From: Patescibacteria group bacterium
GTDB taxonomy: Bacteria; Patescibacteriota; Microgenomatia; Levybacterales; UBA12049
Direction of reading: 5' to 3'
Length of the DNA stretch: 64,000 nucleotides
Assembly: GCA_038064195.1 (NCBI GenBank)
Contig: JBBTTO010000003.1
Location: 43,029 to 107,028, forward strand
The position numbers and the translations under genes are program-made. The notes beneath the pieces were generated by a model. That model searched no databases and was not told where the DNA came from. It saw nothing but the letters and a program-made list of their open reading frames with translations. Below, piece by piece: positions 59,010 through 60,775 of this stretch (the stretch's first letter is position 1; each line of letters opens with the position of its first letter).

Positions 59010-60503
59010 TTTTTGAGAATTTGATCCTGGTTCAGGATGAATGCTGGCGGCGTGCCTTAAGCATGCAAGTCGAACGGTTGAGTCGCAAGACAAGACAGTG
59101 GCAGACGGGTGAGTAACGCGTAGGAATCTACCCCTAGGAGGAGTATAGCCCACCGAAAGGTGGGGTAATACTCCATGGTCTCGCAAGAGTAAAGGACTTA
59201 ACGGTCCGCCCAGGGAGGAGCCTGCGTCCTATCAGCTAGTTGGCGGGGTAAATGCCCACCAAGGCGATGACGGGTAGCTGGACTGAGAGGTCGATCAGCC
59301 ACAACTGCACTGAGACACGGGCAGTACACCTACGGGTGGCAGCAACTGGGAATATTGCGCAATGGGGGAAACCCTGACGCAGCGACGCCGCGTGGAGGAT
59401 GAAGGCTTTCGGGTCGTAAACTCCTTTTGATGAGCCGTTCACAGCTCATAGAATAAGCCTCTACTAACTACGTGCCAGAAGTCTCGGTAATACGTAGGAG
59501 GCAAGCATTATCCGGATTTATTGGGCGTAAAGTGTGCGTAGGCGTTCTTCAAAGTCGCATCTTAAAGACTGAGGCTTAACCTCGGGATTGGATGCGATAC
59601 TCGGAGAATTGAGGATTGACAGGGAAGCTGGAACAGTATGTGTAGCAGTGAAATGCGTTGATATATACTGGAACACCGATGGCGAAGGCAGGCTTCTGGG
59701 TTTTTCCTGACGCTGAGGCACGAAAGCTGGGGTAGCGAAACAGATTAGATACCTGTGTAGTCCTAGCTGTAAACGATGTCCGCTAGCTCTGGCTCGCAGA
59801 ATGGATGAAGAAATTCGTCCCTTGTGCGAGCCGGGGTGTAAGCTAACGCGTTAAGCGGACCGCCTGGGGAGTACGGCCGCAAGGCTAAAACTCAAAGGAA
59901 TTGACGGGGACCCGCACAACCTGTGGAGCGTGTGGTTTAATTCGAGACAAAGCGAAAAACCTTACCAGGGTTTGACATCTTACCGTTTTATGCCTATGGA
60001 AACACTGGCAGATCCGCAAGGATGGTAGGACAGGCGCTGCATGGTTGTCGTCAGCTCGTGCCGTGAGGTGTTCCCTTAAGTGGGGAAACGAGCGCAACCC
60101 CCGTGAAATGTTAAATACTCATTTCAGACTGCCCTGTTTTTACAGGGAGGAAGGAGGGGAAGACGTCAAATCAGCATGGCCCTTATACCCTGGGTTACAC
60201 ACACACTACAATGGCGAAAAACAACGTGTTGCCAGCTAGCAATAGCGAGCTAATCACTGAAATTTCGCCTCAGTTCAGATTGGGGTCTGCAACCCGACCC
60301 CATGAAGTCGGAATAGGTAGTAATCGCGGATCAGCATGCCGCGGTGAATACGTTCTCGGGTCTTGTACACACCGCCCGTCAAGGCAGCAAAGTCGGGGGC
60401 GGCTGAACATCCGCATTTGTGGATGGAGGCCGATACCGGCGATGAGGCTTAAGTCGTAACAAGGTATCCCTTGCCGAAGCAGGGGATGGATCACCTCCTT
60501 TCT
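59010..60503 (+). rRNA. rrs: 16S ribosomal RNA (complete, about 1.49 kb)
   Basis: 5' GAGAATTTGATCCTGGTTCAGGATGAACGCTGGCGGCGTGCCTAA ... 3' AAGTCGTAACAAGGTA...GGATCACCTCCTTTCT, with conserved core blocks throughout. Confidence 0.95.
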
Positions 60504-60747
60504 AATTTTTTCTATTCGCCCTCGTAAGAGGAACGAAAATCTAAATTAGATCTGGGGAAGACATAAAACTTGCTCTAAACAGTCATCTAGACTGGGTTAG
60601 ACAAGGAGCAGTGTAAACCAAGCAACCAAGCTGAGTGAGTAGAGCTTGAGTAACCTCGTTAATACTGAGAGGTTACATAAAATCTACTCTCGCCTTTCCT
60701 ACCACTTTTTGATTAGTCAGAGCCCCGATTTAATCGGACAAGCTTAA

Positions 60748-60775
60748 AAGCCACCTAACTGGTGGCTTTTTTGTG
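60748..60775 (+). terminator. Rho-independent terminator (AGCCACC-taact-GGTGGCT plus TTTTTT) ending the rRNA transcript
   Basis: Seen directly, about 250 nt after the 16S 3' end. No 23S follows. Confidence 0.5.

Follow-up and report, generated by a model that had tools for sequence, protein, structure and literature searches.

The 16S ribosomal RNA (rRNA) gene at 59009-60501 of the window, i.e., the whole 64-kb stretch of contig JBBTTO010000003.1 analysed here, is best explained as a stand-alone, self-contained single-gene 16S transcription unit of a Candidatus Levybacteria bacterium, and to this explanation as a whole we assign a probability of about 0.9. In this unit, RNA polymerase would start at a perfect sigma-70-type promoter (58726-58753) and transcribe a leader of ~250 nucleotides (nt), in which a structured motif specific to the clade precedes a boxB-like hairpin and a boxA-like box, then the 16S rRNA and a 274-nt trailer. 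Transcription would stop at an intrinsic terminator (60746-60775), which would also end a convergent unit of tRNA-Cys, tRNA-Ile, and a GT4-family glycosyltransferase gene. Leader positions 58849-58915 and trailer positions 60695-60742 are predicted to pair as a stem of ~42 bp, from which an RNase III-style cut would release the pre-16S rRNA. The divergent primer sites of the gene are lineage signatures. Base pairs of helix 18 (with the 530 loop and the pseudoknot) and of helix 24 (with the 790 loop) are exchanged in a compensatory manner, which keeps the rRNA structure, while complementarity to primer 515F is lost and that to 806R, 341F, and 27F is weakened.

A split rrn operon had been proposed in the initial annotation, and the absence of a neighbouring 23S rRNA gene together with an own promoter, processing stem, and terminator of the 16S gene bears this out. 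No large subunit (LSU) or 5S rRNA reached the Rfam gathering score anywhere in the window, and neither an additional 6.8 kb of upstream sequence from the source contig (L111) nor the 8.8 kb past the window end that are available from a 99.56%-identical strain (L107) contained a 23S rRNA gene. In total, the span searched for 23S and 5S comprises 65.8 kb on the upstream side and 12.3 kb on the downstream side of the 16S gene, with 3.5 kb of the downstream part provided by the window itself. Relatives were collected by scanning the 22-mer GTGCCAGAAGTCTCGGTAATAC, located in the 530-loop region, across the GTDB species-representative genomes; the carriers are referred to as loci L002-L105. A linked 23S was observed in none of the 35 relatives that share at least 84% 16S identity, include the entire 3' end of the 16S gene, and extend for 1.6 kb or more beyond it (median 4.5 kb), and the 18 scanned loci of relatives were devoid of LSU matches to Rfam. 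Apparent 23S matches in L039, L071, L014, and L025 are situated inside or beside 16S insertions and were dismissed as a repeated element rather than 23S. An element of ~130 nt is common to these four loci and to L012, where it occurs near the 23S. According to Brewer et al. (bioRxiv 10.1101/705046), rRNA genes are unlinked if they are more than 1500 bp apart; no 23S follows within 1500 bp of the 16S gene studied here, and a canonical linked operon with 16S, tRNA spacer, 23S, and 5S on one transcript is not present. The 23S and 5S genes are probably located elsewhere in the genome behind a tRNA-Ala(TGC) gene, as is the case in deeper-branching relatives.

All elements of the unit are encoded on the plus strand. 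The promoter, composed of TTGACA, a 16-nt spacer, and TATAAT, agrees with the consensus in 12 of 12 positions. Six close relatives have exactly the same -35 and -10 hexamers, the homology to relatives starts exactly at the promoter (58725), and a strict promoter pattern was detected in the leaders of 44 out of 86 relatives. Further downstream, a boxB-like hairpin (AACTTGTCCGATG-TTC-ATCGGACTAACAAGT, 58848-58877) is followed by a boxA-like box (GAACTTTGACAG, 58886-58897) of putative function, which was recognised by direct reading, is represented by GCTCTTTAACAA-type sequences in relatives, and is presumably comparable to the boxA of E. coli rrn operons (TGCTCTTTAACAA). The apical stem of the boxB-like hairpin varies among relatives, yet it is self-complementary (CCGATG/CATCGG, CCGCC/GGCG, and CCC/GGG). 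A promoter-like site at 58891-58919 was discarded as a candidate and reread as the boxA-like box and a strand of the processing stem.

This leader/trailer stem of the RNase III type was delineated by cofolding, with the 5' strand at 58889-58915 and the 3' strand, additionally derived from the relatives, at 60695-60742. In the cofold, 58889-58915 pairs with 60695-60722 and 58849-58867 pairs with 60725-60742, an alternative to the boxB-like hairpin, resulting in 42 intermolecular pairs. Most of 43 relatives share the stem core GTGGTAGG(G/A)A :: T(T/C)CCTACCAC (GTGGTAGGRA/TYCCTACCAC), and its flanks covary, with AAGATGTGG/CCACATCTT versus AGAAAGTGG/CCACTTTCT, and GTGGTGGG/CCCGCCAC in L075. A long, covarying duplex that brackets the 16S gene points to an RNase III-type processing stem with putative cleavage.

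The 16S trailer (3' external spacer, 60502-60694) contains the block GGGGAAGACATAAAACTTG, which is invariant in four relatives. No tRNA gene was found in 60502-60775, and the terminator-like Rfam matches Phe_leader (26.7 bits versus a gathering score of 55), isrD, and mir-320 were rejected as sub-threshold. Four nucleotides past the stem, the terminator (60746-60775) consists of A4, the hairpin GCCACC-TAACT-GGTGGC (60750-60766), and T6 (60767-60772), i.e., a GC-rich hairpin followed by a U-tract as is typical of intrinsic terminators. The segment folds with -22.4 kcal/mol (z = -4.2), and L021, L027, and L028 retain it with changes in the stem. It was missed by a consensus terminator scan, probably due to the A/T tracts that extend the stem. 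Because the stop codon of the convergent glycosyltransferase gene is situated ~10 nt from the hairpin, the terminator probably serves both strands. The initial annotation had described 59010-60775 as a 16S gene with a tRNA-free spacer of about 250 nt and an intrinsic terminator, which corresponds well to the gene at 59009-60501 and the 274-nt trailer found here.

The part of the leader that is least readily interpreted is a terminator-like motif (58758-58841) with a TATGTAG box, a hairpin formed by CTCGC (58797-58801) and GCGAG (58808-58812), and T7 (58813-58819). Hairpin and T7 are shaped like an intrinsic terminator; counted from the start of the transcript they lie at ~40-60 nt, ahead of the boxA-like box. 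Across the clade, the motif is composed of a TATGTA(A/G)(A/G) box, a GC-rich hairpin, and directly thereafter T6-8; a GCCAAAG box occurs in most lineages and is absent from the subclade of the window. In most loci, 71-78 nt separate the first position of the -35 box from that of the hairpin. RNAalifold returned no structure for the leader alignment, for which reason a structure specified by hand was used to score the hairpin; its cells are paired to 93.8% over 45 sequences, with CG/UG/UA variation at one pair. The covariance model of the motif (R1) yielded 60 full-length matches in 750 kb, one per locus (48.4 bits in case of the window). These are located just upstream of the 16S gene in every locus for which coordinates were compared, including at least 12 loci outside the seed. 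The 16S leader has no match in Rfam at E<=1. Where checked, the motif was found only in 16S leaders of this clade, and it may be new; no paper describing an rRNA-leader attenuator in the candidate phyla radiation (CPR) was among the titles retrieved by a literature search.

With regard to its function, it is possible, though doubtful, that the motif acts as a promoter-proximal transcription attenuator that sets the amount of 16S rRNA in bacteria with a single rRNA copy and an unlinked operon. Such an attenuator would keep the 16S in balance with the 23S, which is transcribed separately, or make rRNA synthesis responsive to the supply of nucleotides or factors, and a leader element regulating the 16S output would show subunit stoichiometry control in organisms with split rRNA genes. 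The chances are about even that the hairpin and U-run (58797-58819) are no attenuator and represent either an element for the structure or folding of the pre-rRNA leader, enclosed by a closing helix, or the terminator of a small RNA of ~60 nt transcribed from the same promoter. A structural element is suggested by the TATGTAAAG box, which in many members can form a long-range helix with sequence past the U-run, and by the stop-like triplets TAA/TAG/TGA, which vary together with a downstream complement (TGTGAA/TTCACA in L081 and TGTAGAGC/GCTCTACA in L098). However, the closing helix exceeds shuffled controls only modestly (mean longest run 7.9 versus 6.7), and RNAalifold gave no consensus. A small RNA would be in agreement with the fixed distance between promoter and hairpin, but it requires a second promoter between the U-run and the processing-stem strand for the 16S precursor. 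Since no such promoter is visible, a separate small RNA is considered less likely, and a structural leader element is regarded as equally likely as an attenuator. Furthermore, the GCCAAAG box is complementary to the hairpin loop and the 3' strand (GCCAAAG:CUUUGGC, 72% paired), with a covariation that is not clearly above shuffles (39/500), and is kept as a lead. A start-stop mini-ORF (an open reading frame of ATG followed by TAA/TAG/TGA, ~12 nt past the -10 box) was ruled out, as the second and third stop positions vary with the downstream complement, a Shine-Dalgarno (SD) sequence is absent, and the lack of TGG is not significant (~1.4 expected, a rough estimate from base frequencies).

The 16S gene itself (1493 nt) is free of large insertions and matches SSU_rRNA_bacteria (RF00177) with 1376.9 bits versus a gathering score of 50 in the Rfam scan of the window, covering model positions 1-1533 without truncation. 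It shares 70% identity with E. coli rrsH. The anti-SD sequence GATCACCTCCTT was found by direct reading, and among the decoding and anti-SD features G530, AAGTCGTAACAAGG of the 1492/1493 region, and CACCTCCTT are present. The helices of the h18 530 loop and the h24 790 loop are maintained with the exception of 505-526. Among the relatives, 16S genes often span 2.5-3.6 kb due to insertions (L071 1876-5499, L007 4686-7774, L012 84-2642, L039 330-3036, and L002 28-3053). One insertion, in L080 (6090-6323), was recognised by Rfam as a group I intron with 58.3 bits.

In case of the 515F target in the 530 loop (GTGCCAGAAGTCTCGGTAA, 59472-59490), the sequence quoted in the initial annotation is correct, while its count of four mismatches has to be reduced to three: in silico, 515F is mismatched at E. 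coli positions 522 (C>A), 525 (C>U), and 527 (G>U). Similarly, the 806R region AGATTAGATACCTGTGTAGTCC was quoted correctly, and the extent of mismatch was overstated. This region differs from E. coli at four positions, and the 806R target proper in the 790 loop (ATTAGATACCTGTGTAGTCC, 59744-59763) at three; in both cases a single position mismatches the degenerate primers 806R/806RB. Among the other primers, 27F has two mismatches to this gene, 341F one (at the 3' end), EUB338 two, and 1492R three, whereas 926R and 1391R have none.

The 22-mer GTGCCAGAAGTCTCGGTAATAC is exactly matched in 104 independent genome stretches, and the primer-site changes are thus not attributable to chance or sequencing errors. 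In helix 18, A522-U527 replaces a C-G pair, and in the pseudoknot 505-507/524-526, A506-U525 replaces a G-C pair; both exchanges are compensatory. The outer stems of helix 18 are likewise compensated, with A513-U538, U503-A542, and C502-G543 all paired. In the Rfam alignment, the 521-522/527-528 stem carries no mark of a non-canonical pair, and all four pairs of the helix 24 stem beside the 790 loop (ACAG/CUGU) are canonical. For 101 of the 104 carriers a 530-loop segment was extractable, and in all 101 the states of 522/527, 506/525, and 505/526 are fixed, while the adjacent stems covary freely. Except for U505·C526, the changes examined at the 515F and 806R sites represent compensatory swaps in helices 18 and 24, and the 16S rRNA is therefore taken to be functional, i.e., the product of a normal, working gene.

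At window positions 59462-59484 (E. coli 505-527), the position of the methylated guanosine m7G527 is occupied by U as part of the fixed 530-loop pseudoknot variant. This variant might affect decoding or streptomycin sensitivity, and it predicts the absence of rsmG. As a second, weaker reading, U527 in place of the m7G527 site together with the weakened pseudoknot (U505·C526) may alter decoding fidelity or aminoglycoside sensitivity clade-wide. Literature searches on Levybacteria with 515F and on CPR with the 530 loop returned nothing relevant.

Due to the lost complementarity to 515F and the weakened complementarity to 806R, 341F, and 27F, the lineage is expected to be missed by standard V4 surveys, as the initial annotation had anticipated. 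The evasion of common primers by CPR 16S genes reportedly goes back to Brown et al. 2015. The in-silico mismatches agree with the observation of Hu et al. 2024 (Microbiome 12:55, PMC10943839) that the V4 pair mismatches nearly all Microgenomatia, with a coverage of 1.2% in SILVA and 0.5% in MiDAS. The modified primers of that study, 515F_Mod (GTGYCAGMAGBNKCGGTVA) and 806R_Mod (RGACTAMNVRGGTHTCTAAT), are degenerate at exactly the positions that vary here, namely 515F positions 8/11/13 and the 806R change, and each has zero mismatches to the 16S gene of the window. In contrast to that study, in which the mismatches are a problem of primer coverage, they are identified here as compensatory swaps and one unpaired pseudoknot position.

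It is very improbable that the gene is a decaying or surplus copy, with a functional operon elsewhere and primer-site changes that reflect degeneration. The identity of only 70% with E. coli and the alteration of normally invariant 530-loop positions, including the loss of G527 and the unpaired U505·C526, would be in line with a pseudogene, but the covariance-model match is full length (1377 bits), the paired swaps leave helices 18 and 24 intact, and all 101 of 101 carriers, from lineages that are up to ~25% apart in 16S, have the same fixed variant. Conservation furthermore extends to the promoter, the boxA-like box, the processing stem, and the terminator. Even less probable is an assembly artefact, i.e., a contig mis-joined just past the 16S gene that a 23S gene really follows: although rRNA genes do break assemblies and the ENA contig NODE_207 of a near-identical strain begins at window position 60822, right past the 16S terminator, this explanation is untenable since independent assemblies from other samples (L021, L027, and L028) share the same trailer, terminator, and downstream synteny, and it is further opposed by the pairing of the trailer with the leader and the conserved terminator at the trailer end, by the absence of a linked 23S from all 35 relatives, and by the source being a 1.08-Mb contig with ~64x coverage according to its name. 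L021 aligns continuously over 58725-60783, L028 to 60775, and L027 to 60714; the junction of 16S, trailer, and terminator, which the initial annotation had singled out for a check of misassembly, thus recurs in independent assemblies, and misassembly is excluded as far as sequence allows. Position 1 of L107, a 58-kb contig of the 99.56%-identical strain, corresponds to window position 60822. The break just past the 16S terminator is the usual rRNA-induced fragmentation and explains that unlinked 16S genes are often missing from metagenome-assembled genomes (MAGs).

Several points weigh against the interpretation as a self-contained 16S unit of Candidatus Levybacteria. The 23S and 5S genes of this genome were not located in the ~79.6 kb covered out of 1.08 Mb. 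Transcription start, termination, and RNase III cleavage were deduced from sequence alone. U505·C526 is unpaired and thereby constitutes one uncompensated pseudoknot position. The early leader hairpin, if efficient, would oppose a high 16S output from this promoter. Finally, the organism was placed by means of 16S similarity and the titles of database records.

Concerning this placement, the nearest 16S relatives are 93-95% identical (L013, L070, L027, L028, and L021). The best full-length ones, L027 (94.2%) and L028 (93.7%), are titled Candidatus Levybacteria/Levyibacteriota. Carriers of the 22-mer are mostly titled likewise, or generically as Patescibacteria or Microgenomates. In agreement with the CPR/Patescibacteria affiliation put forward in the initial annotation, the 16S gene is assigned by similarity to Candidatus Levybacteria (Microgenomates/Microgenomatia, CPR) and presumably stems from an ultra-small groundwater bacterium. 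Window positions 1-14106 (14.1 kb compared) are 100% identical to contig Hain_H52_01um_R3_1 of ENA ERZ1292617, which has a length of 1,075,823 bp, originates from the 0.1 um fraction of Hainich groundwater well H52, and has ~64x coverage as given by its name. The window corresponds to about 435.9-499.9 kb of this contig in reverse orientation. The match was reached by exact-protein look-ups; a look-up of the first ORF of the window (102-656) yielded no record. Identical fragments were also found in several other runs. Levybacteria-type 16S genes also occur in MAGs titled 'uncultured Gammaproteobacteria' (many third party annotation (TPA) assemblies), an obviously wrong placeholder, and further odd titles of carriers are Planctomycetota, Spirochaetia, Eisenbacteria, Limnocylindrales, Sulfotelmatobacter, Lysobacterales, and Chloroflexia. 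These titles are probably placeholder labels or belong to mis-binned contigs. The 22-mer is diagnostic of Levybacteria-type 16S genes and could flag mis-binned, mislabelled, or contaminated MAGs.

Past the terminator, a GT4-family glycosyltransferase gene (60782-61933, minus strand; 383 amino acids; Pfam Glycos_transf_1 4.8e-33 and Glyco_transf_4 2.5e-29) is convergent with the 16S gene, so that the minus-strand glycosyltransferase noted initially is confirmed. Its GTG start at 61933 follows the gene prediction for L107, the 99.6%-identical contig; a longer ORF extending to 62005 would overlap the adjacent tRNA-Ile gene. This tRNA-Ile(GAT) gene (61977-62050, minus strand), a relic of the rRNA spacer, and tRNA-Cys(GCA) (62102-62175, minus strand), a conserved neighbour of the 16S gene in the clade, are both inverted compared to the relatives. 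Other than these, the window contains only Thr/Tyr/Thr/Trp tRNA genes at 35.5-36.4 kb. In most relatives, the genes that come after the 16S gene in the same orientation are, in this order, tRNA-Cys(GCA), tRNA-Ile(GAT), and a Mur-ligase-like gene. In the window the Cys-Ile pair is co-oriented with the GT4 gene, which is absent from L027 (60782-62175 compared with L027 5461-5752 and L028 3145-3788). The orientation of tRNA-Cys and tRNA-Ile also varies among relatives (L043, L063, and L086), for which reason this spot is considered prone to rearrangement.

Deeper-branching carriers with 76-80% identity offer a view on how the split may have arisen. In L012, L020, L024, and L033, a 23S gene is located 2.4-4.9 kb downstream of the 16S gene with tRNA-Ala(TGC) directly in front of it; the interval also contains protein genes and tRNA-Ile/Cys (L024 5829-6385, L033 1132-2302, L012 3864-7064, and L020 649-2246). 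This layout looks like an intermediate stage of operon break-up. On the simplest reading, an ancestral 16S-(Cys)-Ile-Ala-23S operon would first have been expanded and then broken between tRNA-Ile and tRNA-Ala.

The 16S gene is flanked by cell-wall-type genes (55332-58415 and 62957-64000), namely an ATP-grasp/L-amino-acid-ligase-like, two FemAB-like/Acetyltransf_6, and a Mur-ligase-like gene, which suggests a cluster for the modification of peptidoglycan peptide stems. The neighbourhood is partly conserved in L013, L027, and L070.

The unlinked 16S gene and the escape from V4 primers in this lineage are already known, since both traits are published (Brewer et al.; Hu et al. 2024) and the genome is public. 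The present finding is thus one more example of two documented CPR traits and matters little beyond confirmation. The leader motif and the fixed 530-loop/pseudoknot variant are the remaining leads, and the latter, fixed in nature, lends itself to testing how much change the decoding centre tolerates functionally.

In the arrangement of the Thermus thermophilus type, the 16S gene is situated apart from 23S-5S and is transcribed alone with its own promoter and termination. The unit described here resembles it in the lone transcription of the 16S gene; the lineage is unrelated, and no leader motif is known to be common to both. Compared with the E. coli-type rrn operon (P1/P2, boxB-boxA-boxC, 16S, tRNA spacer, 23S, 5S, and terminators), a sigma-70-type promoter, a boxB-like hairpin, a boxA-like box, a long leader/trailer stem bracketing the 16S gene, and an intrinsic terminator are shared. 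Unlike that operon, the unit lacks 23S, 5S, and a trailer tRNA, its 3' stem strand is located ~190 nt past the 16S end with the terminator directly past this stem, and it contains an additional terminator-like hairpin and U-run upstream of the boxA-like box. The closest correspondence is given by the unlinked rRNA genes of Brewer et al. (bioRxiv 10.1101/705046), who list Patescibacteria among the clades that are exclusively or mostly unlinked and also cover Deinococcus-Thermus, Rickettsiales, Dehalococcoidia, and others. As in their genomes, no 23S occurs within 1500 bp of the 16S gene, and the trait is phylogenetically conserved (0 of 35 relatives linked). Nothing essential differs; what is added here is the anatomy of the stand-alone unit, i.e., promoter, processing stem, and terminator, and a layout that suggests a break between tRNA-Ile and tRNA-Ala.

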